A stretch of DNA of 19,547 nt from a virus (IMGVR_UViG_2671181100_000008:1-19547); one strand, 5' to 3'; counted from the stretch's first letter, positions 634 through 18,277 are shown. The notes: generated by a model from the letters alone, not told the origin. A program made the numbers and translations.

Positions 634-849
634 GATTTTCTTGTTGCCATCTAAATTGTTTAAAAAACATTCTATTGATGTTGATACCACAATTTAAGAA
701 CTGCCTTGAAGCATATCAAGTTAGCTAGACGTCAAAATGGCACTCTGGGAATTTGTGTTTTAGGCCCAACCTTAGTGATGTTTGCCGTACAGCTCCCTTT
801 ATGGTCATCCTATGGTAAAGTTAAGCTCCCTTCGAAAGGAGACCCCCAA

Positions 850-1977
850 ATGACGATAACAGCCTATTCTAGAAAATTTAAGCGTGAACTGGATGCTAAG
901 CAGTTGGAAAACCTTTTCGAACGTAGCAACTCAGATCCTTCTTTAAGTTTTAGAGATTTTGTTAAAGAGGATGTTGAATGCCCGGCATGCAATGTTTCTG
1001 GTGGTTATTACGTTTCGGAAGGAAGATCGCTCAGTAACGGCAAAGTTGTAAAGCAAGCACACTTTGCATTTCGAGACAATCTAGGTAAAGACTCTCACCT
1101 CCCATTTTGTGATTTTTATACTGGAGATGATAAGTTGAACGTTGTTTCAAATGAAGGCCGAATTGATTTTATGCGCTCGGGTTCTGAAGCGACACGCTTA
1201 ATAGGTCTTATGGTCTGCGCGGGAATTCAGGAGAAGATTTTTACGCAAGAAGATATACGTAACATGCGCCAATGGTTCTTAGATTTAAGAGAAAAAGGCA
1301 CTTTTACATTTAATTTAAGCCCTCACATAATTTACCTTGCAAAGGCCTCATTGATTAGATACAAGAGAAACTATGATAATTATGTTGTCGATCTCAGCGC
1401 CACAAACAAAAGTTGGTTCGACATCAATGAGGAAGTATATCAATCCCTTTATTTCAAGTACCCTCAATTCTATCTAAACCGTAATGAGAATCCTGAACTT
1501 TGGAATGTAAGGCTTAAATCAGTAGTCAAAAAAGCAAGAACTATAGTAATTAAAGACTCTGGAACATCAACATTTGACAGATCAATTCTCAACGAAAAAT
1601 ATGAGATAGCTACTCAAATGGCAAGACTGATTCGAGACTACCACCCTCGACTCCGTATGATTATTAGTTACACACCAACATCTATCAAAGCAAACAACCC
1701 ACTCATGGCTTTATCTGCATTATTATTACATGTTTCCGATTGGAATATTCAGGAAAGTTGTAAAAAAATCCAAGCAATTTTAGCAGTTGAGAAAGTTGAC
1801 GATAATTCTGCAGGAAACATTATTGGATTAAACCCATTCATTCACCATAGCGCTTGGATTCTTGTTAAAGCTTTAAACGACTTACATTCTAATTTAGACA
1901 AAGAAATTGATTTTGATAAAGCATTCAACGAAGAAAAAGAGAGGCTCATGAAAATTTACTATCCAAATGGTCAATAA
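850..1977 (+). CDS. Hypothetical protein (375 aa), putative partner of the downstream SIR2-like protein
   Basis: ATG at 850 preceded by AAGGAG (836-841) with 8-nt spacing; stop TAA 1975-1977; the ORF-track start at 706 is a TTG without an RBS. AT-rich. No domain recognisable by eye; one CPAC motif. Confidence 0.7.
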   Translation: MTITAYSRKFKRELDAKQLENLFERSNSDPSLSFRDFVKEDVECPACNVSGGYYVSEGRSLSNGKVVKQAHFAFRDNLGKDSHLPFCDFYTGDDKLNVVSNEGRIDFMRSGSEATRLIGLMVCAGIQEKIFTQEDIRNMRQWFLDLREKGTFTFNLSPHIIYLAKASLIRYKRNYDNYVVDLSATNKSWFDINEEVYQSLYFKYPQFYLNRNENPELWNVRLKSVVKKARTIVIKDSGTSTFDRSILNEKYEIATQMARLIRDYHPRLRMIISYTPTSIKANNPLMALSALLLHVSDWNIQESCKKIQAILAVEKVDDNSAGNIIGLNPFIHHSAWILVKALNDLHSNLDKEIDFDKAFNEEKERLMKIYYPNGQ

Positions 1978-2068
1978 CAAGTAAATTCTTATCTCTACAG
2001 ATAAATACATACTTGAGCTGTGTTCTAACAAATTTTAATGATTACCACTAATATATCTCGGGGGTCAA

Positions 2069-3568
2069 ATGAATATAACGGATTTTCTAAAAGGCTACAG
2101 AAACCATCCAATATTATTTGTTGGAGCAGGTTTCAGCATGAGATACTTATCAATTTCTTATAGCTGGCCGGCACTCTTAGAGAAAATTAGTATTGACCTG
2201 ACAAACTCTAATGAACTATATAAAGATCTTGTCAGAGAAAACAGTAATAAAGATGGTATTATAGACCTTCCAAAAGTGGCAACGCAATTAGAGCAAATAT
2301 TTGATGCAACACTTAAAGCAGATAGGAATGGAAAGTTCAAAAATATCAATGACTTATACTACAGCTCGGAAGATACCTCCTCAAATATTAGCAGATTTAA
2401 AATCTATCTTTCACAGTTAGTGAATATCACAGATTTAAAATTAGGAGTTCAAGATGAAATATCTGAATTAGTAAAAGCCTCCAAAAATATTGCCTCTGTG
2501 ATTACAACAAACTATGATAATTTTATCGAAAGTGCAATTGGTTATAACCCTGTAATTGGGAATGATATACTTTTAAGCAATCCTTATGGTTCTGTTTATA
2601 AAATTCACGGATGCGTTAGCAAACCAGAATCCATAATAATAACTGGTGATGACTATGTTCATTTTGATAAAAAATATGAGTTGATTCGTGCTCAACTCCT
2701 ATCCTTATTTATACATAACCCGATTATATTTATGGGGTATAGAATAGGTGACCCTAATATTAAAAAAGTATTAAAAACAATATTTTCATACATACCACCT
2801 CGTTCTAAAATTGCAGAAAAAATAAAAAACAACTTCCTTCTGATTGAAAGAGAAGAAGGCATTGATAATTTAAACGTTGTCTCTCACGATCTCGAAGTAG
2901 AAGATGCTGGGTTAATTAGCATTAATAAAATCGTTACAGATAACTTCTCAGACATATATAAAGAACTTGCTCAACTGCACTTACCAGTTTCGGTAATGGA
3001 TATACGCAGAGCAGAGAGTGTCTTTGGTAAAATAAAGGAAGGCGGAGACATAAAAGTAAAACTTGTTGGGGATTTGGACACGCTCAGAAATGATGAACTT
3101 GTTCTAGCCGTCGGTTCTGTTAACTCTATAAAAATACACATGCAAACACCTCAGGAGATGATGGAAAACTATTTTGATCTAATTTCAAATCAGGAGTCGC
3201 ATGTTGTCGAGTTGCTTGACAAGTTCACCATCAATAAAAGATCATATTTCCCAGCTTATGCTTTTCATAAATTCAGTCCAGGTGTTAAATGCTTAACATC
3301 ATTAATGAAAAATCAAAAAAGATTAATAGCGTCAAACTATGCTAGGTTACCCAAGAATCAAAGAATAGTAGAACACACCATTGAAGATATTTACGCTAAA
3401 CATTCAGATATTGATAGCAAATTACAAAATATTATTTTCTTCAATGCTCATGATGGACATATATCCTTGGAAGATTTAGAAAAACATGTCCGAGAATTTA
3501 AGGACAAGTCTCATACTGATTATCGCAAACTTTTAGCATTGTATGATTACCTCGCACACAATGTATAA
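2069..3568 (+). CDS. SIR2-like domain protein (499 aa): N-terminal SIR2_2-type putative NADase domain, C-terminal half unassigned
   Basis: Motifs seen in translation: ILFVGAGFS (res 15-23), ITTNYD (145-150, Asn148 codon 2510-2512), KIHGC (His180 codon 2606-2608), FMGYRIGD. Same strand as and 91 bp downstream of the 375-aa gene; AT-rich. Confidence 0.8.
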   Translation: MNITDFLKGYRNHPILFVGAGFSMRYLSISYSWPALLEKISIDLTNSNELYKDLVRENSNKDGIIDLPKVATQLEQIFDATLKADRNGKFKNINDLYYSSEDTSSNISRFKIYLSQLVNITDLKLGVQDEISELVKASKNIASVITTNYDNFIESAIGYNPVIGNDILLSNPYGSVYKIHGCVSKPESIIITGDDYVHFDKKYELIRAQLLSLFIHNPIIFMGYRIGDPNIKKVLKTIFSYIPPRSKIAEKIKNNFLLIEREEGIDNLNVVSHDLEVEDAGLISINKIVTDNFSDIYKELAQLHLPVSVMDIRRAESVFGKIKEGGDIKVKLVGDLDTLRNDELVLAVGSVNSIKIHMQTPQEMMENYFDLISNQESHVVELLDKFTINKRSYFPAYAFHKFSPGVKCLTSLMKNQKRLIASNYARLPKNQRIVEHTIEDIYAKHSDIDSKLQNIIFFNAHDGHISLEDLEKHVREFKDKSHTDYRKLLALYDYLAHNV

Positions 3569-5911: not shown

Positions 5912-7675
5912 TCATTCTTTATGACCGGCTACAGGATGCGTCTGAGGTAACCAGTCTTCCGCACTCTCTGAAAGTTCAACGTTGGTCACCATGCCACGGG
6001 CTCTCCGTTCCTTACGGTACTCGTGATTAAACTCCCTCATCGCGCTTTCCATCCCCTCTGCGAATTTATTCAGCGTCAGCGGCTTGTCGAAACCGTTGGC
6101 CTCCAGGAATGCCAGGTAAGCGTGATAGAGATAAATTCGCGGATAGTGAGGCGGATTGCGGTTTCCTACCATCATTCCCGCACAATCAGCCAGCCGCTCA
6201 AGATGCGCGCAGAAGGCATAAAGCGGATCCGTTTTCTGCTTCACCTCCAGTGCTTCTTCGCTGTTCCGTTGCTCCAGCAGCAGCGCCCGCGCTTTTTCCG
6301 GGTTCGCAAAGTTCGCCAGCAGCCGACGAACCACCACCGGAATTTCAGCGGATATCTTTTCTGCCAGGTCGGGATCTTTATCCTCCTCGCTGACGCGCCG
6401 GTTAAACTGGAAAATTACGCGTCGCCGGGAAACGCCGCCGGCACGTTCGGTGAAAATCATCGGCGTGTTGTTCGTGGCCACAACCACCGCCCGCAAAACG
6501 GCGGTGTACTGGTGCTCGTGTTTCGGGTCGATCTCCACGGCATCCCCGCCGGTTATCGCTTTTATCCCGGTACCCTCTCCTGAATATTTGGGCTGATCAG
6601 GAAGCGTTATCATGCTTTTCCCGACGAACTGCGCCCGCCCGCGCGCGCTGTCGAGCGCCGCCATGTTCCCGCTGGCGGTGTTATGCGCACCGGCCAGCAT
6701 CGTAGCGATATGGGTAAAGACACTTTTCCCGCTACCGCCATCACCGGTTATCTCGAGGAACAGCTGCCAGTCGTACCGGTTCGCCAGCACCATAAAGAGC
6801 GCTGCAGCGATGCGCTGCATCTTAATTGCGTCTCTATCTGATGCGTAACTTAGCCATTTATGGAAGTTCGGCGCGTGGTCGCGGAGGTTTTCGCCCGGTA
6901 CCGCTGGCGTGTAGGTCACGCCGTTATGATTGGTTAGCCAGTTGTCCTGGCTGTGTTCGGAGAAAATGCCGGTTTCCATATCGTAGACACCGTTTGCAAA
7001 GGGGATCAGGCTCCGCCGCGGCTCCCCCATCACCGGGATAACGATTTTCAGGGCGTCGATAACGTTGTTGATCGCGCGCTTGCTGAAGTTGGTTTTGTTC
7101 TCGTTGTAGATAGCCACCATTTCGCGGCTCAGCTCGAGCATAGACGTTTTCTCCCAAATGCCGGCGCGGTAGACGTACACGCCCTCGCTGTTTTCGTTGA
7201 TTGCAATGCCGGTGTAACGCGCGGCCAGTATGAGCGCCTTTTCGTTATCAGCCAGGTCGCGGAGGTTTACATCCGTCAGCGGTTTGCCGATCACCATACT
7301 TTTGCCGGCTTCCGCATCGGCTTTGAGGCGCGGCAGCTGCGGCGTCCAGTCCTCCAGAAGCTGATAACCTTCAGAGTAGAATTGCGCGCGCTCCACGCCG
7401 GCCACCGCCAGCTTTGTCGCGAGAATGGTTATCTGCCGTTCGGTCAGATGCCCGCCGCGGCAAACCCGGGCATAGAGCCGGCCATCATCAACAATGCGGA
7501 TATTCTCCAGCTCCGCCAGCTGCTTTTTATCCAGCACAACCGGCGGCACCGTGTCGCCAATCGGGTTCATTTCCTGCCATGCTTTGGCGAACGTCCAGGC
7601 ATCGGCGCCGGCAAAGATGATTGACTCCTCCATGAGATCCGCCGGCTGCTTTTTAAGGTTTGGTGCATTCTTCAT
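5912..7675 (-). CDS. Primase/helicase-like replication protein (P4 alpha / D5-type C-terminal NTPase family), 587 aa
   Basis: Walker A-like GDGGSGKS in translation; size and context typical of satellite/PICI pri-rep genes; ATG at 7675 overlaps the stop of the upstream gene (ATGA). Confidence 0.8.
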   Translation of the reverse strand: MKNAPNLKKQPADLMEESIIFAGADAWTFAKAWQEMNPIGDTVPPVVLDKKQLAELENIRIVDDGRLYARVCRGGHLTERQITILATKLAVAGVERAQFYSEGYQLLEDWTPQLPRLKADAEAGKSMVIGKPLTDVNLRDLADNEKALILAARYTGIAINENSEGVYVYRAGIWEKTSMLELSREMVAIYNENKTNFSKRAINNVIDALKIVIPVMGEPRRSLIPFANGVYDMETGIFSEHSQDNWLTNHNGVTYTPAVPGENLRDHAPNFHKWLSYASDRDAIKMQRIAAALFMVLANRYDWQLFLEITGDGGSGKSVFTHIATMLAGAHNTASGNMAALDSARGRAQFVGKSMITLPDQPKYSGEGTGIKAITGGDAVEIDPKHEHQYTAVLRAVVVATNNTPMIFTERAGGVSRRRVIFQFNRRVSEEDKDPDLAEKISAEIPVVVRRLLANFANPEKARALLLEQRNSEEALEVKQKTDPLYAFCAHLERLADCAGMMVGNRNPPHYPRIYLYHAYLAFLEANGFDKPLTLNKFAEGMESAMREFNHEYRKERRARGMVTNVELSESAEDWLPQTHPVAGHKE

Positions 7676-7986
7676 TTTCTGTTCCCTCGCTCCCTGATGA
7701 TTTCCCGCATGACACGAATTCGCTCGATGCCCTGTACCCGCATAATCCGATCGATATCTTTTTCGCCGGCGACCGGCGCGGAAGAAACAAATTCAAATTC
7801 CCGCACCAGTCTTTCTGGCGTGCAAAAACACGGTGAGCTGTACCCCTCGCGGCAATATGTCACTCTGTCGAATCGGTAACTTTCGATAATTACGATGCTG
7901 CCCCGGCTGTCCTTCCATTTATCGCCCGGCCTGATTTCAGGGTGAGCGCGGCCACCAGCAGCTAAGCCGGAAATTTTAATCGTCAT
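7672..7986 (-). CDS. Hypothetical protein (104 aa), replication operon
   Basis: ATG at 7986 with GAGGT RBS; stop overlaps the primase start. Confidence 0.55.
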   Translation of the reverse strand: MTIKISGLAAGGRAHPEIRPGDKWKDSRGSIVIIESYRFDRVTYCREGYSSPCFCTPERLVREFEFVSSAPVAGEKDIDRIMRVQGIERIRVMREIIRERGNRK

Positions 7987-7996
7987 ATTTTTTACC

Positions 7997-8200
7997 TCAC
8001 GCCGCTGGCGGGATTACCTGATAACCAATCTTCTTCAGAAAGCGCGCGGCACTCTCCACCGTGAAAAGGATCTCGTCGTCCATAAGGGGGCGCATCGACT
8101 GCAACCCGTTCGACGTGTCCACCAGATAGCGGCCGCCGGCCGGAAAACTGAATACAGTTTTGCCATCGCTACAGCGCACCAGATTATAAATAGCGGTCAT
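7997..8200 (-). CDS. Hypothetical protein (67 aa)
   Basis: ATG at 8200 with GGGAGG RBS; ATGA overlap with the upstream gene stop. Confidence 0.5.
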   Translation of the reverse strand: MTAIYNLVRCSDGKTVFSFPAGGRYLVDTSNGLQSMRPLMDDEILFTVESAARFLKKIGYQVIPPAA

Positions 8201-8412
8201 GGTCTGACCTCCCTGACTTTCACCAGATATTCCGATGCCTGACTGACCAGGCTGTGAACCGCCGCGACACGAAAGCTTTCCATTTCATCATCCGGCGCCA
8301 GGGTGTTTATCCACATATCGAGAACGGCAAGCGCCTGACGGCTGTATTCAAGCGCCTGGCCTGCGCTGGTCGTCAGCATGGCAATGGATTCGTTTTGAGT
8401 TGGCTTTGTCAT
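8197..8412 (-). CDS. Hypothetical protein (71 aa)
   Basis: ATG at 8412; ATGA overlap with the stop of the recombinase-like gene. Confidence 0.5.
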   Translation of the reverse strand: MTKPTQNESIAMLTTSAGQALEYSRQALAVLDMWINTLAPDDEMESFRVAAVHSLVSQASEYLVKVREVRP

Positions 8413-9284
8413 GCATTCACCTCCATAGCGAGGCGTGTCTGGATAGCCGCGGCCTTGCTCCCCAGCTGGAGATAAGTCCGGGTGATTGCCGGGTTACTGT
8501 GTCCGAGCATTTCAGAGGCGACCAGCAAGCCCTGTTCGCCGCCGGCGGACATGAGATTAAAGGCGGCAATTTTGCGGCTGGAATAGGCGCTCAGGCGCAG
8601 ACGCGTGTTTACTACGCGGGTAAACCACACCATGACGTTGTGCAGTTTCTTCCAGATCGTCTGACGGCTAACGCTACCTTCCAGAGACTGGCAACGGTTA
8701 CTTTCAATCTGGCTGCGGGAAAATACCAGGTCGTCACCGATAAGATTGCGCTCCATGCGTTCCCGCAGTCGTTTGATGATGCCCGGCGGCAGCTGTTTGG
8801 TGTCGTGCTTCACTTCAGCCTTTGCCACCAGCTCAAACACAATCGCCTGTTCTTCTTCCGTCATGCCGGCGGCCAGCTCGTCGCAGCTCACGCTATCCCA
8901 GTGCATGTACCCAATGTGATCGCCAGCAAGCCGGGCAGCGTCCTTGCGCTGCTGGCGAACAATCTCGATCCCCTTCCGGGTCGCTCTGGCTTCCGCTGCT
9001 TTGGTCTGCTTCGCCACGATGATTGTTGCAATGCCGGTTTCCCAGTTGATGCAGGAGTAACGGAAGTTGCACACGTCGCTGGTACGCCAGCCGGTTACGG
9101 TCGCAATATCCCACCAGAGTAAAACCCACTCCGGCTGGGTCTGCTGGATGCGTTCGCGCAGTTTGCGCTGCTCTTCCCGTTCGTAAACGGGGGTCATGGT
9201 GCGGGTGCCTTTCGTGGTAGTGGCTTTTACCACGTTGCCGCGCAGCTCGCGGGCTTTAGCTGTCAGGGTCTGGAGGTTAAACAT
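8409..9284 (-). CDS. Tyrosine recombinase-like protein (291 aa) embedded in the replication operon
   Basis: Internal ATG at 9284 with GGGAGGT RBS (the 517-aa ORF-track extension has no support); C-terminal LGHSNPAITRTYLQ matches the tyrosine-recombinase box II pattern; candidate box I Arg in TGWRTSDV. Confidence 0.65.
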   Translation of the reverse strand: MFNLQTLTAKARELRGNVVKATTTKGTRTMTPVYEREEQRKLRERIQQTQPEWVLLWWDIATVTGWRTSDVCNFRYSCINWETGIATIIVAKQTKAAEARATRKGIEIVRQQRKDAARLAGDHIGYMHWDSVSCDELAAGMTEEEQAIVFELVAKAEVKHDTKQLPPGIIKRLRERMERNLIGDDLVFSRSQIESNRCQSLEGSVSRQTIWKKLHNVMVWFTRVVNTRLRLSAYSSRKIAAFNLMSAGGEQGLLVASEMLGHSNPAITRTYLQLGSKAAAIQTRLAMEVNA

Positions 9285-9522
9285 GGCTACCTCCCAGTTT
9301 CGCAACATCCAGTTCAAACGCGCCGCTACTGTATTGATAAAGCGAACATTCAGAGCGAATTTTGGCGGCAAAGATAAGATCCCAGCGGGAATAAAACTCG
9401 CGGGCTTCTTGCTCACTGTCGGCAACGATGCGGATAACAACGGGAGTACAGGTCCGGCCTTTCGGCGTACCGAGGAAAAGCCAGGTGAATTTGGGCAGTT
9501 TTTGGGTTGGGGTAGTAGCCAT
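9277..9522 (-). CDS. Hypothetical protein (81 aa), first gene of the replication operon
   Basis: ATG at 9522 with GGAGG RBS at 8-nt spacing; 3' end overlaps the recombinase-like start by 8 nt. Confidence 0.5.
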   Translation of the reverse strand: MATTPTQKLPKFTWLFLGTPKGRTCTPVVIRIVADSEQEAREFYSRWDLIFAAKIRSECSLYQYSSGAFELDVAKLGGSHV

Positions 9523-9724
9523 GTGGCAGCCTCCATACAGTGGTCTAGATAACCACCACCGGAAACGCCAATTTCACTGGTGGTGGACTGAGCAGGGTTG
9601 GCGTAACCGGACTGTATGGACTCCGGCGCGGATTTCTCCGCCCCCACCCAGCCCACCATAATTTTGCTAGCAGAGCGGTTTTGAACCACAACGCGTGAAA
9701 ATAGGTGAGACGGATCAACGGCAC

Positions 9725-9746
9725 AAAAAAAGACGCTTGGCGCGTC
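9725..9746 (-). terminator. Rho-independent terminator on the minus strand, downstream of alpA
   Basis: Minus strand reads GACGC-GCCAA-GCGTC followed by seven T (plus-strand A-run 9725-9731, stem 9732-9736 and 9742-9746). Confidence 0.5.
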
Positions 9747-9993
9747 ATGTGTCGCCATACAGTCATTCAGGACGCCAATCCTGACACCAGATTTTGCTGG
9801 TGCTTTTAAAGCATACCCTTCAGTTGAATAACAAGGCAAGGAGTTTTTAGGGTGAGCGAAGCCCTGCCCCAGACGGGCATAATTGTTCTTCATGGCATTA
9901 ACCTTTTTGAATTTTTTAGTGAGCTGTCGCGACGAACTTATTCTGCGAGATCTGAAGTGCAAACTCTCGCAAATTATCTCAGCTCACGGAATC

Positions 9994-11017: not shown

Positions 11018-12232
11018 TTAAGCGCTTTTCCCAAACGTTCCGTGCACTACATTTTCGCCGTTTTCCAACGCCTCCATATAGTCGGCATACCACTGGAGCA
11101 TTTCGCGGCGGCCATCCAGATACTGGGCGTGGTTGTACGTTCCTCGTATAGAGTTTTTGTCGACGTGTGCCAGTTGCGTTTCAATCCACGCGGTGTTGTA
11201 GCCCTGTTCGTGCAGGATGGTACTCATGGTGTGCCGGAAACCGTGCCCGGTGACTTTTCCGTTATAGCCAATCCGCTTGAAGACTTGGTTTATGCTGGCT
11301 TCACTCATTGTTTTCCGCGGATCGTTACGGCCTGGGAACACAAGCGGGTAATTGCCTGTTAGCTCTTGGATCTGACCAATAAGCGTAAGAGCTTGCCTGG
11401 ACAACGGCACCACATGAGGGCGACGCATTTTCATGCGTGAGGCGGGTATTTCCCAGACCGCCTTACTGATATTGATTTCATCCCAAAATGCCCCACGGAG
11501 TTCGCCGGGACGCAATCCGGTGATAATCAGCAGACGAGCAGCCAAAACTACTAACTCGCTTCCTGAATATCCTGACAACGCATTGAAGAAATCAGGCAAT
11601 TCTTTAGGTGTGAGGAAAGGAAAATGATTGGACTCGTGCCCTTGCATCGCGCTGGTGAGATCCGGGGCGGGGTTATACTCAGCTCGACCGGTAACTATTG
11701 CGTAACGGAAAACTTCCCCACAGCGCTGCCTAACTTTTCTTGCCTTTTCGGTAGCGCCGCGCCCCTCAATGCGCCGCAGCACATTCAACAGTTCAAGCGG
11801 TTTGATTTCGGCTATTGGTTTTTTGCCAATGTATGGGAACACATCTTTATTGAAGGCTTCGAGGATGTCTGAAGCATAACCAGCAGACCATTTTTTTAGT
11901 TTGCTGCTGTGCCATTCAAGGGCAATATCTTTGAAGGTGTTGTTTAGCTGAATTTCACGGGCAATCTTCTCCTCCCGTTTCGCTTCCATAGGATCGATAC
12001 CCCCAGCGATACCCCTTTTCGCTTCTTCACGTTTTGCCCGAGCATCGGCCAATGTGACTTCAGGATAGACACCCAGAGCTAACAGCTTCTCTTTGCCGGC
12101 TACACGATATTTGAGCCGCCAGTATTTGCCGCCATTAGGTTTGATAAGGAGATACAGACCGCCACCATCAGCCAGCTTGTAAGGCTTATCTTTAGGTTTA
12201 GCGGCCTCCACCTGCCGGGCGTTAAGTTTCAC
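11018..12232 (-). CDS. int: Site-specific tyrosine integrase, P4 type (404 aa), GTG start
   Basis: N-terminal arm-binding-like region (KLNARQVEAAKPKDKPYKLADGGGLYLLIKPNGGKYWRLKYR) and C-terminal catalytic region (HGFRHT, NHAQYLD); GTG at 12232 preceded by AAGGAGG and an in-frame stop; adjacent to the tRNA-derived att sequence. Confidence 0.9.
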   Translation of the reverse strand: MKLNARQVEAAKPKDKPYKLADGGGLYLLIKPNGGKYWRLKYRVAGKEKLLALGVYPEVTLADARAKREEAKRGIAGGIDPMEAKREEKIAREIQLNNTFKDIALEWHSSKLKKWSAGYASDILEAFNKDVFPYIGKKPIAEIKPLELLNVLRRIEGRGATEKARKVRQRCGEVFRYAIVTGRAEYNPAPDLTSAMQGHESNHFPFLTPKELPDFFNALSGYSGSELVVLAARLLIITGLRPGELRGAFWDEINISKAVWEIPASRMKMRRPHVVPLSRQALTLIGQIQELTGNYPLVFPGRNDPRKTMSEASINQVFKRIGYNGKVTGHGFRHTMSTILHEQGYNTAWIETQLAHVDKNSIRGTYNHAQYLDGRREMLQWYADYMEALENGENVVHGTFGKSA

Positions 12233-12296
12233 TTGGGGGTACCTCCTTTAGACCGAACAGCATATACCCCCATAAGTACCCCCAAACGACCGTAGA

Positions 12297-12381
12297 TTTC
12301 AGGGAACTGTAGTAGACGTAGAAATACCAAAAGGGGCTGTAAAGCGCAGATTATAAGGGGTTTCAGTGAACTTTAGTAGAC
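12297..12381. repeat. Two 21-bp direct repeats (12297-12317 and 12361-12381) between int and the att core
   Basis: tttcagggaactgtagtagac versus tttcagtgaactttagtagac, 19 of 21 identical; the embedded 9-mer gtagtagac recurs inverted at 10981-10989. Confidence 0.45.
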
Positions 12382-12398
12382 TTGGGGAGACGTTAGAA

Positions 12399-12444
12399 TG
12401 GTGCCGATAATAGGAGTCGAACCTACGACCTTCGCATTACGAAT
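12399..12444 (-). tRNA. Partial tRNA-Thr (anticodon CGU, thrW-like): 3' 46 nt only, from anticodon loop to CCA; serves as att site
   Basis: Minus strand reads ATTCGTAATGCGAAGGTCGTAGGTTCGACTCCTATTATCGGCACCA with a T-arm (GGTTCGACTCC), acceptor 3' strand, discriminator and CCA; the expected 5' half is absent from 12445 onward. Identity with thrW is from memory. Confidence 0.7.
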
Positions 12445-13191
12445 TATAAGAATCCGCTTCTAATTCAAAGTATTACCCCATCAACACTGTGCTCACACGT
12501 CCCACCACATCAAAACATGTAAAGCCTTGCAAGCCATTGTGAGGCCTTATGTGTCTCAGTTTTGTCCCACCTTGTATTATGACTTGCATAGCCAATGAAG
12601 ATAAACGTGACGACAAACAGCGCAGCAGTCTTCTTTTCTTTCACACTTTCCCCAATCAGCATACATACTTTCTACCATAACTGTAGTGAATGTCTGTTAT
12701 GAGCGAGCAAAAGAGATTCAATTACCGGGGAATTACTCCGACATAAGCTCTCCCAGAAACACCGGAACAGCGATTCGCATATTCTCTTCTATACTTTCAG
12801 TCTGACCGGCTGGAGATTTCATAGCAAGAAAATGGATGCGCCAAGACCTATGCGGGAAAGAGGCTGAGGAAATAATTGCCGATAGCACTGTGCCCGACGA
12901 AAAGTTAATCTGGCACGCAATGACGCGCGTCCTTGGGGCATCAGGAATCAGAGAGCCAACTTAACAACCCATTACATATTATTTAACCGGACTGTTACAT
13001 GTACAAAGTTCAATGATTAGTGATTCTGTGACGCCACATACAACCTAAGCCCCTGATATAAAACCAGTCTATGCAACACCTAAAAATCATATATGATAGG
13101 GTGATAAGTCAACGCGCAGTATAAAAATTAAGCTAAAAAATGCTTTCAGCATAGTGAATCTATTTCACACTACATAATTAAGGATGAAAAA

Positions 13192-14037
13192 ATGACTGCA
13201 CCAGTAATTAGTTTTATCAATATGAAAGGTGGGGTTGGTAAAACAACTTTATGCGTTGGGATTGCTGAGTTTTTAGCCAACCATATGGGGCGCAAGGTTC
13301 TAGTTATCGATATTGATCCTCAATTTAATGCCACTCAGTCCTTAATGGGGCATTATGATCGAGTAGAAGAATATATGACTGCCCTTCGCCCTAATAATCA
13401 AACCATTCGAAAGATTTTTGAGCTTCCAAATTCATTAATGGAAGATGAAAAGAAAGTGACACCAGAACAGGTCATTACTAAAGTTTCAGACAATCTTGAT
13501 ATTATCTTAGGTGATATAAACATTATCTTTGATACTAACCAAGAGGGTATTAGAATAAAAATGTTGCGTAAATTCATCACCGAAAATGACTTAAAAGAAA
13601 GTTACGACTATATCTTTATCGATAGCCCCCCAACAATCTCATTATTTACAGATACCGCACTCCTTGCTTCTGATTATTATCTTACTCCGGTTAAAATTGA
13701 TCACTACTCGGTGCTTGGAGCAAGCAGTTTAAATAGCGTTATAAGAAATATGCGCACACATCATGAGAAAGAAATCAAGCAAGTCGGTTACATTTATACA
13801 AACACTGATGCTGAAATGACCAATAAAACAAGGGAAATTAAAGAACAATTCGAAAACCATACTCAATTTACAAATTTTTATTTCTTTGAAAATCAATTAA
13901 CCTACGTGCGTGATTTAATGGTAGGTTATCAAGGAAATATTCCTTCTTGTTATTCAAAGTCACGCCAAGATATAGAAAAGATCTGTAACGAATTTATTAA
14001 CAGAGTGGCTCACTTGGAAGGTAACACAAATGAATAA
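13192..14037 (+). CDS. ParA/MinD-like P-loop ATPase (281 aa)
   Basis: Deviant Walker A KGGVGKTT near the N-terminus (FINMKGGVGKTTL); AAGGA RBS 7 nt before the ATG; very AT-rich. Confidence 0.8.
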   Translation: MTAPVISFINMKGGVGKTTLCVGIAEFLANHMGRKVLVIDIDPQFNATQSLMGHYDRVEEYMTALRPNNQTIRKIFELPNSLMEDEKKVTPEQVITKVSDNLDIILGDINIIFDTNQEGIRIKMLRKFITENDLKESYDYIFIDSPPTISLFTDTALLASDYYLTPVKIDHYSVLGASSLNSVIRNMRTHHEKEIKQVGYIYTNTDAEMTNKTREIKEQFENHTQFTNFYFFENQLTYVRDLMVGYQGNIPSCYSKSRQDIEKICNEFINRVAHLEGNTNE

Positions 14038-14428
14038 ACAATTAATTAAAGCGCTCAATAAAGCTAATAATATGCCCATGACCAAAGAAAACTTCTTAGG
14101 CTTGGTAATTATGTTGATTCTTTCAAAAGAGGTTTTTAGATCAAATTTTGATGTTAGTAAATTTATTAACAAAACCTTCAAAATATCTTTTTTGAATTAT
14201 GCTGTACGGTCAAGAACTTTGATGTGCGCTAAAATTTGCAGACATATTAATGAATTAAGTGAGAATGACATAAAGATGGCTTATACGCATTTCTTAAACA
14301 ACATTAACACATTAGACATTATTTTTAATGATGCAAATAAAACAAGCCAAAAATCCACATCTAAAAGCAAGCATGCTATAAGGAATTTAAATATTTGGAT
14401 TAATGCAAATAAAAAGGAAGAAGAATAA
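14030..14428 (+). CDS. Hypothetical protein (132 aa), coupled to the ParA-like gene
   Basis: ATG at 14030 overlaps the ParA-like 3' end by 8 nt; GGAAGG RBS; AT-rich, Asn/Lys-rich. Confidence 0.6.
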   Translation: MNKQLIKALNKANNMPMTKENFLGLVIMLILSKEVFRSNFDVSKFINKTFKISFLNYAVRSRTLMCAKICRHINELSENDIKMAYTHFLNNINTLDIIFNDANKTSQKSTSKSKHAIRNLNIWINANKKEEE

Positions 14429-15093
14429 TGCTCACGCAGGATCCCTTCAACATTGGAAGAGATGTAAATTATTTTAGAGCGGAGGTGCAAAAGCACCTCA
14501 GAACCACTGATGAAATAAACAAATCAGTATCAATATTTAGGCAAATAAGTCTTTGTAATACAATTTTAAGTCACAATCCTAATCTAAATCACTCTTCTTA
14601 TATAAAAGGTTTTATATATGATACCTTAAACTCCTTAATTGCCATTATAAAAAAAAGAGAACGGTATCTCCAACTGAACTTCCGCTCAATGGTGGAGCAT
14701 GTGGCCAGAATAAGCCTCAATAAGAACTACAATGGTGGGGATTTTGACCAAACTGTACGTCGTAGAGACTTTGACTTCTTAAAAGCCCAACAAGTCGATG
14801 AAGGCTGGTCTTATTTACATAATGTCTATATCAACGCCTGTTATTATGTTCACTCCTCCCCCCAAGCGAACCTAAATGTTACATCAACATTTATATCACT
14901 TATGGAGGGAGATTGTAATTCAACACAGCATAAAATGGTGAAAAAACTTCATGAGGTAGTATCGGCGCTGATGAGAATCATTATAAAGTATTATCATCAG
15001 CATATCTCAAACATTTTCTTTAGAAACAAAAAGGATTTAGAGAAAATAATGGGAAAAAGCCTTTATTCATATTATACCAGCTTAGACAATTAA
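14428..15093 (+). CDS. Hypothetical protein (221 aa), third gene of the ParA-like operon
   Basis: ATG at 14428 overlaps the upstream stop (TAATG); AAGGAAG RBS; no assignable domain. Confidence 0.6.
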   Translation: MLTQDPFNIGRDVNYFRAEVQKHLRTTDEINKSVSIFRQISLCNTILSHNPNLNHSSYIKGFIYDTLNSLIAIIKKRERYLQLNFRSMVEHVARISLNKNYNGGDFDQTVRRRDFDFLKAQQVDEGWSYLHNVYINACYYVHSSPQANLNVTSTFISLMEGDCNSTQHKMVKKLHEVVSALMRIIIKYYHQHISNIFFRNKKDLEKIMGKSLYSYYTSLDN

Positions 15094-15130
15094 TTCTCTC
15101 ATATTCATTGCGTAGAGCATAAATATCTAT

Positions 15131-15627
15131 CTAACCACCTAAAATGCCAGAAAATCTAGTTGTATACCGGTGCGAAAATATCTCGCGTTTCATCTGCCAC
15201 TGCTGCTGAATGCCCTGCCCAGCGAAACAGAGTGTTTCCTTCCCGTCTTTTGCATTGAGGTGCTCCAGCACGCTCATTAACTTTTCGCTCCCAGGACCCA
15301 GCGCGTTATCGTCGAATAGGTTAGGGCATGCTCTGACTGAAGAAGTCCCCCAGCATTACCCCGGCTTTCTGATATCGGTGTCCGTCTTTCCATATTGCAT
15401 CCAGACTCCCCGTTGCTACTGCAATGATATCCCGACTGTCCTGTGTCGGGATGAGCAGCTTCACCGACGCGCTGTTACAGTAGTACGACTCGTTCAACGC
15501 AAAGGGTATCGTGTAAAACCGATGATGACACTGCCGGCAATCAGCACTGACGTCAGCAAACGTGAGAAAGAACAGATAAGCCGAACGATTTAGGAAATGT
15601 TTGAAGAGACTGATATGTGGATGGTTT
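15131..15627 (-). pseudogene. umuC: umuC-like (Y-family translesion polymerase) C-terminal remnant, 5'-truncated and frameshifted
   Basis: Minus-strand translation gives ...HRYQKAGVMLGDFFSQ, then after a frame change ...NLFDDNA...LNAKDGKETLCFAGQGIQQQWQMKR...RYTTR, resembling the UmuC/MucB C-terminus as I recall it; no start codon, and the N-terminal three quarters are missing. Confidence 0.55.
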
Positions 15628-16023
15628 CAGTTTAAACGCCTTGAACCGTCATATTACCTAAGTACAATCCGCTGTGACTGGCAATCATTCAATACTTGCA
15701 CTATCAAAAGTGCATCAGCCAACCGCAGCACGTCTTGCATACGACCTGTCTGCGGTTTCAATCACCTCTCACCACCAGTCCCATCAATAATAATTAAACA
15801 GCGCCTAAACAAAATAAATAACAACAAGTCAACAACCTCGACAGGATGCCGATGGGATGATGAAGAGATAAGAAAGAATAACTAGTAAAGCCCTAAAACG
15901 TCAGCGTTCAGACGCGTTTTTTACTTAACCGGTAACAAATACGTTGTATCATAGCAACATAAAATGATTGTTCTAAATCAGATTAACTCCTCACTTTTGT
16001 ACAATGTCGCTTACAGGTATACC

Positions 16024-17913
16024 ATGAAATCCGAGACGCTAACTGTCCAACAACTTTTTCAAGACCGCCGACAATACTGTGTTCCATTCTATCAACGTGC
16101 CTATGTATGGACTCAGCGAAACCAATGGTCAGCTCTACTGGAGGATATCCTAGAGAAAGCACAATCCCGGCTCTCGGGTACAAAACCAACTCCCCATTTC
16201 CTTGGTGCAGTGGTACTGGAACCTCAACCAAAAAAAGGATTATTCGGTGTAGATTCCATACATATTATTGATGGTCAGCAACGATTGACCACTCTTCAAT
16301 ATGTTCTGGCATCCATCCGATTAGCATTACGTGCGACAGATCTTTCCAACTTAGAGCCTCTCATTTCGTCTTGCCTGAAAAACTCAAACGAAGACACAAT
16401 GCGAAATAAAGAAGTAGAGCGCTTCAAACTGTGGCCAACTTTTCGGGATCAAACTCATTTTATTCAAAGTTTTAATGTTGAAAATATTGACGATATCCGG
16501 AATGTATTCTCTGATAGTTTCACGCAGCATGGTACGTTGCGTAAGCATTTTAATCACCCGCCATCACTAGAAGCATTATGTTTTTTTACTGAAGCCTTTA
16601 TAAAGTGGATTAAAATAGAAAATCACTCACCACGAGAAAATGCTGTAGCATTAATTGAGGCTGTCTTGACGGATCTGAAACTAGTAAGCATATTTCTCGA
16701 GGCTGAAGATGACGCTCAAATAATTTTTGAAACATTAAATGGCAGAGGTGCGGAACTTCATGCCACAGATCTTATTCGCAATTATATTTTTATGTGCGCT
16801 GAACATGAAAATATTAATGCTGTTGAATTATATGAGAATGAGTGGAAGATCTTTGAAGATACGTACTGGTCAGAAAGACAACGTCGTGGTCGTATTAATA
16901 AACCACGCATGGAGTGGCTAGTGCATGCAACATTGCAATCAGAAAGGCAACGTGAAATCGATCTGTCTCGTCTTTACAATGAGTATCGTGATTATGTAAG
17001 TAAGGACTTGCCTTCACAACGAGCAGATCTGCAAGTAAAGCGCCTCAAACAATATGCATCACAATATAAAGAATTGGTTGGTGGTTTTGGCACAACCCCC
17101 ATCTCACACTTTGGACATCGCATCGCAGCCTATGATGTGACGACACTTTATCCGCTTGCTTTGTTCATTTCGATAGCTAACATCGCCGATGATGAGAAAG
17201 CAGCCATGTATAATGATCTTGTCTCCTACGTAGTACGAAGAGCCGTATGTGGCCTGACGCCAAAGAATTACAACAATGTATTTATGAATGTATTGCGGCA
17301 CTTGTCTAAAACAGAAATTTCCAGTGTTGAGTTACGTAATATCCTCAATAGCTTAAATGGCGAAGCCTCACGTTGGCCTGGGGACTCAGAATTTCTCAAC
17401 GCTTGCATCAATGCTCCACTTTATCCTGGCAGGCTCGACGCACCGAAAATGCGCTCAATGTTAACGGAACTTGAAAGAGAACTTTGTCGCCAAGTGAAGA
17501 CAGAGAAGCCTGATGTTCCAAATCTTTCTAACCTCGATATCGATCATCTTATGCCTCAAAGTTGGTATTCCTGTTGGCCTCTCGAAAATGGTCATATGGT
17601 GACAAATTCAGATGCTACGGTATTGAACCAAATTGTTCTGTCTGGAACCGATCTTACCCCAGAACAGCTACTGGTAAGGAAACGGCAACAAGCGATAGCT
17701 ACGTTGGGAAATCTAACTTTGCTTAACCTTAGCGTAAACCGTTCTGTTCAGAATGCTGTATTTCTGAAAAAACGTGATGCTCTCATCGTCCACACCAATC
17801 TACGACTGAACATTCCACTTATAGTTAAGGATAAATGGGATGAGGATGAAATCCTGGAGCGGGGTAAAAAGTTGGGGGAAATTGCATTGAAAGTATGGCC
17901 AAAACACGATTAA
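16024..17913 (+). CDS. GmrSD-like DUF262/DUF1524 protein (type IV restriction-like, ParB-like NTPase domain plus His-Me finger nuclease), 629 aa
   Basis: N-terminal DUF262 hallmarks (VPFYQRAYVW, IIDGQQRLTTLQ) and C-terminal DUF1524-like DIDHLMPQSW ... NLTLLNLSVNRSVQN; start chosen at ATG 16024 so the motif sits at the N-terminus (alternative ATG 15964 lacks an RBS). Confidence 0.8.
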   Translation: MKSETLTVQQLFQDRRQYCVPFYQRAYVWTQRNQWSALLEDILEKAQSRLSGTKPTPHFLGAVVLEPQPKKGLFGVDSIHIIDGQQRLTTLQYVLASIRLALRATDLSNLEPLISSCLKNSNEDTMRNKEVERFKLWPTFRDQTHFIQSFNVENIDDIRNVFSDSFTQHGTLRKHFNHPPSLEALCFFTEAFIKWIKIENHSPRENAVALIEAVLTDLKLVSIFLEAEDDAQIIFETLNGRGAELHATDLIRNYIFMCAEHENINAVELYENEWKIFEDTYWSERQRRGRINKPRMEWLVHATLQSERQREIDLSRLYNEYRDYVSKDLPSQRADLQVKRLKQYASQYKELVGGFGTTPISHFGHRIAAYDVTTLYPLALFISIANIADDEKAAMYNDLVSYVVRRAVCGLTPKNYNNVFMNVLRHLSKTEISSVELRNILNSLNGEASRWPGDSEFLNACINAPLYPGRLDAPKMRSMLTELERELCRQVKTEKPDVPNLSNLDIDHLMPQSWYSCWPLENGHMVTNSDATVLNQIVLSGTDLTPEQLLVRKRQQAIATLGNLTLLNLSVNRSVQNAVFLKKRDALIVHTNLRLNIPLIVKDKWDEDEILERGKKLGEIALKVWPKHD

Positions 17914-17959: not shown

Positions 17960-18277
17960 TACTCACTATTAAATCCTTTAATTTGCAACAAGAACAGCAG
18001 TGTCAGCCCTAGGTTTCGGACTTTGTACCGCTTATCTTGTCTTCAAAAATCAGCTCGCATCCTGCACAGTTCAGCGCATTACGAATCTGTAGCACCAATC
18101 TTAACTATCTGTTTTAGCAAGCATTAACCGCATTCACTAAGCTATAGTTGATGGCACAAACAGAAAGTTGATGCATGATGTTGTCATGTGTATGTCACAA
18201 ATGCGGCACAACGATCTTCAAACATGTAGCCACACATCCACAGAAGAGCACAAAGCCTTGCAATCCAGTGCAACGCT

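Follow-up and report, generated by a model that had tools for sequence, protein, structure and literature searches.

The viral sequence IMGVR_UViG_2671181100_000008:1-19547, a stretch of 19,547 nucleotides (nt) that is referred to here, at its full length, as the window, carries at positions 13192-15093 an operon of three genes, designated A, B and C, which encode a ParA-type ATPase and two small proteins of uncharacterised families. The initial annotation of the window had described three overlapping genes at this place, with an 8-nt overlap and a TAATG junction, and the coordinates were reproduced exactly. The features of the operon are as follows.

13100-13191, plus strand: upstream leader with a Shine-Dalgarno sequence AAGGA, a weak sigma-70-like site (13164-13193) and the palindrome ATGCTTTCAGCAT (sequence reading, promoter scan)
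13192-14037, plus strand: gene A, a ParA/Soj-type deviant Walker A ATPase of 281 amino acids (open reading frame call, Pfam)
14030-14037, plus strand: A/B overlap of 8 nt, ATGAATAA, with the ATG of B within the last codons of A (read from the sequence)
14030-14428, plus strand: gene B, a helical protein of 132 amino acids and unknown fold (open reading frame call)
14426-14430, plus strand: B/C junction TAATG, in which one base is common to stop and start (read from the sequence)
14428-15093, plus strand: gene C, an all-helical, probably HEPN-like protein of 221 amino acids (open reading frame call)

The operon is very AT-rich, as had been claimed, with a guanine-cytosine (GC) content of 0.31-0.36 over positions 13001-15000 and of ~0.45-0.62 in the flanks. 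Shine-Dalgarno-like sequences, AAGGA or GGAAGG, were read before each of the three starts, and the A/B overlap indicates a likely translational coupling. The same 8-nt overlap was found in five other loci (L002, L011, L013, L025 and L027), the B/C junction measured -4 to +10 nt in 11 loci, and close gene junctions of -17 to +10 nt were kept in 12 loci. Comparison with copies 85-92% identical in DNA gave ratios of nonsynonymous to synonymous substitution (dN/dS) of 0.03-0.07 for A, 0.16-0.17 for B and 0.09-0.10 for C. Because these ratios are low and the tight junctions recur in the 12 loci, A, B and C are real genes and not chance reading frames, with all three under purifying selection. Promoter and terminator scans gave sites no commoner than those in shuffled sequence, and scans for tRNA genes and Rfam families gave no match inside or beside the operon. 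The leader (13100-13191) is conserved only among close relatives from Escherichia coli, Klebsiella and Enterobacter. The perfect palindrome within it, ATGCT-TTC-AGCAT at 13140-13152, lies ~40 nt upstream of the ParA start and might act as an operator, but divergent loci do not share it.

Gene A had been named as a deviant Walker A ATPase of the ParA/MinD type, and the profile matches agree, with AAA_31 at E 7.9e-38, CbiA at E 7e-17 and a Walker A sequence of KGGVGKT. Among the PHROG families A matches phrog_164 (E 2.2e-57). Its motif residues are the signature K12, the P-loop K17, D40 and D42 of Walker A' and D144 of Walker B. The closest solved structures are those of chromosomal Soj proteins (Helicobacter pylori Soj, 6iub, E 1.5e-18; 1wcv), and structures of ParF and of the delta protein (2oze, E 9.3e-12) match as well. 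Since 11 module copies, drawn from hosts of very different kinds, show no variation in Walker A, A' or B, A is predicted to be an active, Soj-like ATPase of the ParA/MinD type. It scores below every NCBIfam cut-off for partition ParA proteins, for example 77 bits against a cut-off of 180 for ParA_partition. A is also the slowest-evolving of the three proteins, with 42-78% identity to the window copy, compared with 21-67% for C and 25-45% for B.

Proteins B and C had been described as lacking recognisable features. This holds for Pfam, NCBIfam and PADLOC, in which neither has a family, and for the missing ParB likeness of B, which resembles neither ParB nor ParG nor omega by sequence or fold. 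It does not hold for PHROG, where both are members of families of unknown function, B of phrog_6264 (E 3.8e-25) and C of phrog_7540 (E 5.9e-77). The conserved core of B consists of G24, N39, Y57, S61-R62-T63 and R71 and is followed by a disordered linker rich in K, S and N and by a C-terminal helix with W123. Against PADLOC-DB v2.0.0 B gave a marginal match to PD-T4-2_B (E 0.0024, 40 residues). A role as adaptor or antitoxin is proposed for it.

When 1.84 billion representatives were searched exhaustively with its profile, C had relatives in 102 clusters, nearly all of them single-domain proteins of ~220 amino acids; no Pfam domain was found in 64 members of the family. The profile of C had no match among PDB sequences even at E <= 10, and a Foldseek search of the PDB with C returned nothing significant. 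The signature of the protein is R86-S-x-[IV]-E90-[H/N]-x-x-R94 together with Y134-x3-C138-x-[YF]-[VI]-H142. The motif RIIIKYYH (R183-x7-H191), which the initial annotation had offered as HEPN-like, is not conserved and has been dropped. Another motif, the R-x4-H of R86-SMVE-H91, is invariant in 30 sequences of the enterobacterial clade, while in the wide family of 64 members position 91 is Asn in 46 and His in 10 only. Invariant throughout the family are R86, E90, Y134 and H142, which lie on two different helices, and S87, R94, C138, D65 and K38 are nearly so. The homologue from a Lactococcus phage, which lies below profile significance, still carries the conserved residues. It is reasonably likely that C belongs to the HEPN superfamily. 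The probably HEPN-like fold and the invariant residues of catalytic type point to a putative enzyme or effector, and a role as effector or toxin is proposed. In a subset of the family (P0083, P0111, P0112, P0121, P0133 and P0150) the proteins reach 288-305 amino acids through a C-terminal extension of ~75 residues with no recognised domain, and the position equivalent to H91 is occupied by G, S, Q or A.

The three genes travel together. A-B-C was intact and syntenic at every one of more than 40 loci examined with enough flank, comprising 10 genome or metagenome loci, 26 viral loci from IMG/VR (synteny in 26 of 26), Streptococcus phage Javan1, Fusobacterium vincentii and Lactococcus phage PLg-TB25. 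The module is present in islands of Dickeya, Yersinia and Erwinia, on low-GC metagenome contigs (L004-L008), in which C is 20-27% identical to the window copy, and in Javan1, whose annotation omits B. Alignment of the window with divergent loci shows DNA homology from 13186-13192 on, within ~6 nt of the start of A, to just before the stop of C wherever the operon is spanned; no promoter or flanking cis element travels with A-B-C. Of 5,426 complete E. coli genomes, 52 carry the identical operon on the chromosome, and it is intact in ~48 of these 52 carriers. Disrupted copies of A, with B and C intact, were found with IS903B in E. coli, with IS1 in Dickeya and as a split gene in Erwinia. A is therefore not needed to keep C harmless, which argues against A as the antitoxin. 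C has been disrupted by independent insertions of IS3 and IS1A in different E. coli strains, and no copies that keep C without B were seen. Repeated insertion sequence (IS) insertions in C fit a costly effector.

Two of the divergent loci have unusual surroundings. A complete A-B-C at 8758-10684 of L011 (ENA ERZ25042269, ctg13206l) lies in a genome of 1.84 Mb and ~38% GC, flanked by transposase fragments and a Fic gene and with STIV_B116-like, DUF2284 and GGGtGRT proteins as neighbours; if this genome is archaeal, the host range of the module would be very wide. In Yersinia enterocolitica (L013-L015, 10942-19263) the module abuts a polyvalent protein of 2,773 amino acids (LPD5/LPD1/MuF_C/LPD38) and a deaminase-type toxin/immunity pair (Deam_C and DUF6911), in a variable island rich in conflict genes.

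The module occupies three kinds of slot. In L033, a Gifsy-like prophage of Salmonella, a CI-type helix-turn-helix (HTH) repressor of 131 amino acids precedes A by 58 nt on the same strand; the neighbours are a GtgA-like Peptidase_M85, Ea22, P, O and CII in one direction and RecE/RecT in the opposite one. This position, between cro/cII-O-P and recE/recT, is the rexAB slot. The order in Javan1 is repressor (HTH and Peptidase_S24), A, B, C and int, all on the lysogeny strand. The slot downstream of the repressor is a documented hotspot for RexAB of lambda and BstA of BTP1, and genes in it are thought to use the highly active repressor promoter (PMC8585504). The position thus implies that the module is probably co-expressed with the repressor in lysogens of these two phages. 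A lambdoid phage of E. coli with ssrA as its integration site carries the module between int and attP, and closely related integrases occur without the operon in hundreds of genomes; the operon is therefore optional cargo. The window-type slot is better preserved in L027, where the order is SRAP (SOS-response-associated peptidase), A-B-C, umuC/umuD, tail-fibre invertase and tail fibres, and E. coli 1283 has the same block where a lambdoid prophage ends. The flanks in the window hold remnants of SRAP, umuC (DUF4113) and dinI at 12824-12964 and 15132-15594, together with int fragments. SRAP and umuDC are intact in L027 and decayed in the window, where A-B-C is intact; as read from this comparison, the flanks have decayed in E. 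coli while the operon has been kept. The window copy lies in the cargo region on the tail-fibre side, not beside a repressor.

The initial annotation had placed the operon on an island with a GmrSD-like gene and recombinase remnants. The GmrSD gene is real; it lies at 15964-17913 on the plus strand, 870 bp downstream of C, and gives a full-length PADLOC match to mREase_IV (profile positions 1-629 of 629). The description of the recombinases was incomplete, as an intact tyrosine integrase (11018-12232, minus strand) accompanies the remnants. Linkage of GmrSD to the operon is confined to the E. coli lineage and is not seen in the Klebsiella/Enterobacter-type loci L025-L027. The operon was also considered as part of the adjacent integrase island, and this was rejected, as comparison with L001 and L027 shows it to be cargo at the end of a tailed prophage.

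Overall, it is moderately probable that A-B-C is a self-contained mobile conflict module, an abortive-infection or superinfection-exclusion system expressed in lysogeny and built on toxin-antitoxin-like logic. The basis for this reading is anatomy, position and analogy, and each functional step is one that we infer. The reading is favoured because A-B-C is an obligate unit whose homology ends at the edges of the reading frames, because it occupies lysogeny-expressed slots in L033 and Javan1 and a cargo slot between int and attP, and because the window offers a defence neighbourhood, with mREase_IV downstream and a PDC-S25 SIR2 gene upstream. It is favoured further because A-B-C has stayed intact under selection while flanking genes decayed, and because the order and size of B and C are antitoxin-toxin-like and the IS insertions in C fit a costly effector. 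The initial annotation had regarded a defence, exclusion or toxin-type function as plausible, and the prophage lysogeny and cargo slots make a function of this kind appear the more likely one.

The mechanism that we envisage would run as follows. Temperate phages and integrative islands would carry the module as cargo, and its expression would come from the prophage in lysogeny. C would be the effector, a HEPN-like nuclease and probably a ribonuclease (RNase), using R86, E90, Y134 and H142. B, made just before C by coupled translation, would bind and restrain C and link it to A, and A would be a catalytically competent, ATP-dependent switch on DNA or the nucleoid. A may sense a phage-induced change, or target the complex to it, and then release or activate C. 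Candidate triggers for A are foreign replicating DNA, nucleoid damage and a phage protein acting as a ParA ligand or a DNA mimic. It is possible, and proposed here only tentatively, that the module represents an unrecognised class of abortive-infection systems encoded by prophages, in which a catalytically active, nucleoid-binding ATPase of the ParA/Soj type has become the sensor or switch for infection and controls, through the adaptor B, an atypical HEPN-like RNase whose active site is R86/E90/Y134/H142 and not the canonical R-x4-6-H, and that this class is common to temperate phages of Gram-negative and Gram-positive bacteria.

Several observations weigh against the conflict-module reading. 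A, B and C have no detectable homology to any validated defence protein, and the matches in PADLOC v2 are at P-loop level or marginal. The window operon does not adjoin a repressor, and expression of this copy in lysogeny is therefore in doubt; silencing of the AT-rich window operon by H-NS is also possible. The IS insertions in C may only reflect a preference of IS elements for AT-rich DNA. The assembly of one carrier phage (L002) is a free circle, so that a role in episomal maintenance keeps some plausibility.

The last point bears on a role in partition, which the initial annotation had thought unlikely. Among the features of a ParABS system, the Walker A ATPase was found, and the other three of the four, a centromere-binding partner, a repeat centromere and a low-copy replicon, were not. 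Iterated repeats (families of at least 3) were absent from window positions 12200-15400 and from the region upstream of A in 7 loci, and int (Javan1) or attP (L002, the ssrA phage) follows C directly, so that there is no room for a downstream centromere. In 72,556 plasmid records the C family was not found except in one circular lambdoid phage, and A-like genes at E<1e-20 occurred in 5 records only: the phage circle, three replicons of Mb size and, at 30% identity, a 51.8-kb plasmid of Clostridium tetani. The phage circle, L002 (NZ_CP148393.1, positions 1-37920, plasmid pZ1323HEC0010-3, listed in PLSDB as a non-mobilizable plasmid), is a complete lambdoid phage of 44.6 kb with lysis, Q, replication, repressor, int and tail genes, in which a 3' fragment of ssrA (~18023-18209) forms attP; 15 of 16 copies of this variant are chromosomal. 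Classical partition was therefore rejected. B as a ParB or centromere-binding homologue with parS-like repeats was looked for and not found, and because a ParB-like partner and centromere repeats are lacking, true plasmids do not carry the module and its slots are those of prophage lysogeny or cargo genes, A-B-C is judged not to be a partition locus. A related explanation, in which the module segregates or maintains an excised, episomal phage or island, with A as motor, B as a novel centromere-binding adaptor and C as an accessory, is quite unlikely. It would account for the intact catalytic motifs of a Soj-like ParA, for the co-translation of A with a small partner, an arrangement known from type Ib par loci, and for the free 44.6-kb circle, and ParA/Soj genes at the ends of integrative elements such as PAPI-1 and ICEclc do help to maintain the excised form. 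It is opposed by the findings on repeats, downstream room, plasmid carriage and chromosomal location, by the lack of shared flanking DNA among divergent loci, by the dissimilarity of B to ParB, ParG and omega and by the scores of A far below the partition-ParA cut-offs, and a conserved protein of 220 amino acids with enzyme-like invariant residues would be out of place in a par locus.

In an addiction or stabilisation module, B and C would be a toxin-antitoxin pair by which loss of the prophage or island is punished, A would have an accessory role as a regulator or chaperone-like ATPase, and the element itself, not host immunity, would benefit. This reading is unlikely, and it overlaps the conflict-module reading, since one system can serve both addiction and abortive infection. 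B and C follow each other and overlap as antitoxin and toxin genes do, the module sits by int and att at element edges, where loss by excision happens, and viable copies exist in which A is disrupted while B and C are intact. A precedent is the delta-omega-epsilon-zeta locus of pSM19035, where a ParA gene lies beside a toxin-antitoxin pair, and its delta structure (2oze) is one of those that match A. However, A is the most conserved of the three proteins and is never absent in the more than 40 loci, which is odd for a dispensable accessory, and the slot downstream of the repressor is typical of exclusion genes. A very unlikely alternative is that the module modulates lysogeny or host physiology, tuning induction, nucleoid organisation, division or the SOS response to the advantage of the lysogen and playing no part in conflict with other phages. 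The neighbouring repressors, the SOS-related cargo (SRAP, umuDC and dinI) of the window lineage and the common function of ParA/MinD proteins in organising the nucleoid and division machinery are in its favour; yet the module moves among three unrelated slots and among phages, islands and phyla that are likewise unrelated, and no further gene is linked to it, as fits an autonomous cassette, and the probably HEPN-like fold and catalytic-type residues of C suggest an enzyme or effector. That the operon is decaying, non-functional cargo hitch-hiking in a degraded prophage region is extremely improbable. Its window neighbours SRAP, umuC, dinI and int are indeed remnants, and several copies have IS insertions, but dN/dS is 0.03-0.17 across the three genes, the ATPase motifs are invariant, identical intact copies persist in ~48 of the 52 E. 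coli carriers and the family is conserved across phyla.

The module can be compared with several known systems. A match of the operon to a catalogued system would have refuted the reading of the initial annotation, and PADLOC-DB v2.0.0 gave no meaningful one: A matched PDC-M28B over the P-loop only (residues 3-42, E 1.9e-6), and C and three divergent homologues of C had no match. Full-text literature searches found neither a ParA and HEPN or abortive-infection counterpart nor the RefSeq accessions of the module. Lambda RexAB and BstA of Salmonella phage BTP1 share with the module in L033 and Javan1 the slot, the orientation and a patchy distribution as prophage cargo. They have no sequence or domain relation to A, B or C (no match to the RexA, RexB or BstA families), whereas the module has three proteins including a ParA ATPase and its window copy lies in a different cargo slot; membership of a RexAB/BstA type is thus a positional class and not a homology family.

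PARIS (AriA/AriB), Septu and Gabija are defence systems that combine an ATPase with a nuclease; their ATPases are of the ABC/SMC or OLD type and their effectors are TOPRIM or HNH nucleases. The logic suggested for A-B-C by analogy may be the same, with a nucleoside triphosphatase (NTPase) sensor or scaffold that holds a toxic nuclease until infection, but A is of the ParA/SIMIBI type and there is no homology to the module. Compared with HEPN toxins and defence RNases (HepT/MntA, RnlA/LsoA, AbiD/F-type, Csm6/Csx1), C has no profile-level match to any HEPN family and keeps the canonical R-x4-6-H in its enterobacterial clade only; the partner of HepT is an MNT nucleotidyltransferase, which the partner of C is not. 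In gene order and size B and C resemble type II antitoxin-toxin pairs, with a small gene and then a larger one and with overlapping stop and start.

McdA/McdB and PomZ/PomXY position protein cargo by means of a ParA-type ATPase and small adaptors and are chromosomal core genes that position housekeeping structures. A and B resemble them in joining a ParA ATPase to a small, partly disordered, fast-evolving putative adaptor to protein cargo and not to DNA, whereas A-B-C moves as prophage cargo and includes a third, enzyme-like protein. Type Ib ParA-ParB(ParG/omega)-parS loci and the pSM19035 locus likewise have a small deviant Walker A ParA without an N-terminal HTH, followed by a small coupled partner, as A is followed by B. 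Unlike them, A-B-C has no centromere array, its B is unrelated to ParB, ParG or omega, it is not on plasmids and it always includes a third conserved, enzyme-like gene.

To our knowledge, ParA has so far been linked almost only to the positioning of DNA and protein cargo. What is unusual here is the combination of a ParA-type ATPase with two uncharacterised families in what is probably a prophage-borne conflict system of the NTPase-plus-putative-nuclease kind. If the reading is correct, a ParA/SIMIBI-type ATPase would join the NTPases that serve as sensors in bacterial immunity and would offer a tractable case of a DNA-bound ATPase switch that reads the state of infection, and two protein families, now the unnamed phrog_6264 and phrog_7540, would be defined, possibly with a divergent HEPN active site. 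The module is native to E. coli and measures 1.9 kb, and both clinical lineages and Gifsy-like prophages of Salmonella carry it. It is also a candidate cause of resistance to phage therapy in Enterobacterales and streptococci, one that PADLOC v2 misses.

Other parts of the window hold further mobile and defence-related genes. An AT-rich two-gene unit at 706-3568 (plus strand) encodes a protein of 423 amino acids (706-1977) with no Pfam or PADLOC match and, downstream of it, a SIR2_2 protein of 499 amino acids (2069-3568), which matches the PADLOC candidate system PDC-S25 over its full length (E 6.9e-140); the unit is probably another defence cassette. A remnant of a P4-like satellite at 5912-9962 (minus strand) includes a D5_N/Pox_D5 primase (5912-7675) and an odd reading frame of 517 amino acids (8409-9962) with an Ash domain and a partial Phage_integrase domain, in or beside which Rfam matches to C4 antisense RNA (9576-9663) and isrK (9726-9803) were found. 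Just upstream of the start of the tyrosine integrase lies a 21-nt direct repeat, 12297-12317 and 12361-12381, with the sequence TTTCAG[G/T]GAACT[G/T]TAGTAGAC; its copies are 90% identical and 64 nt apart, and they may be arm-type sites of the integrase or an att-proximal element.

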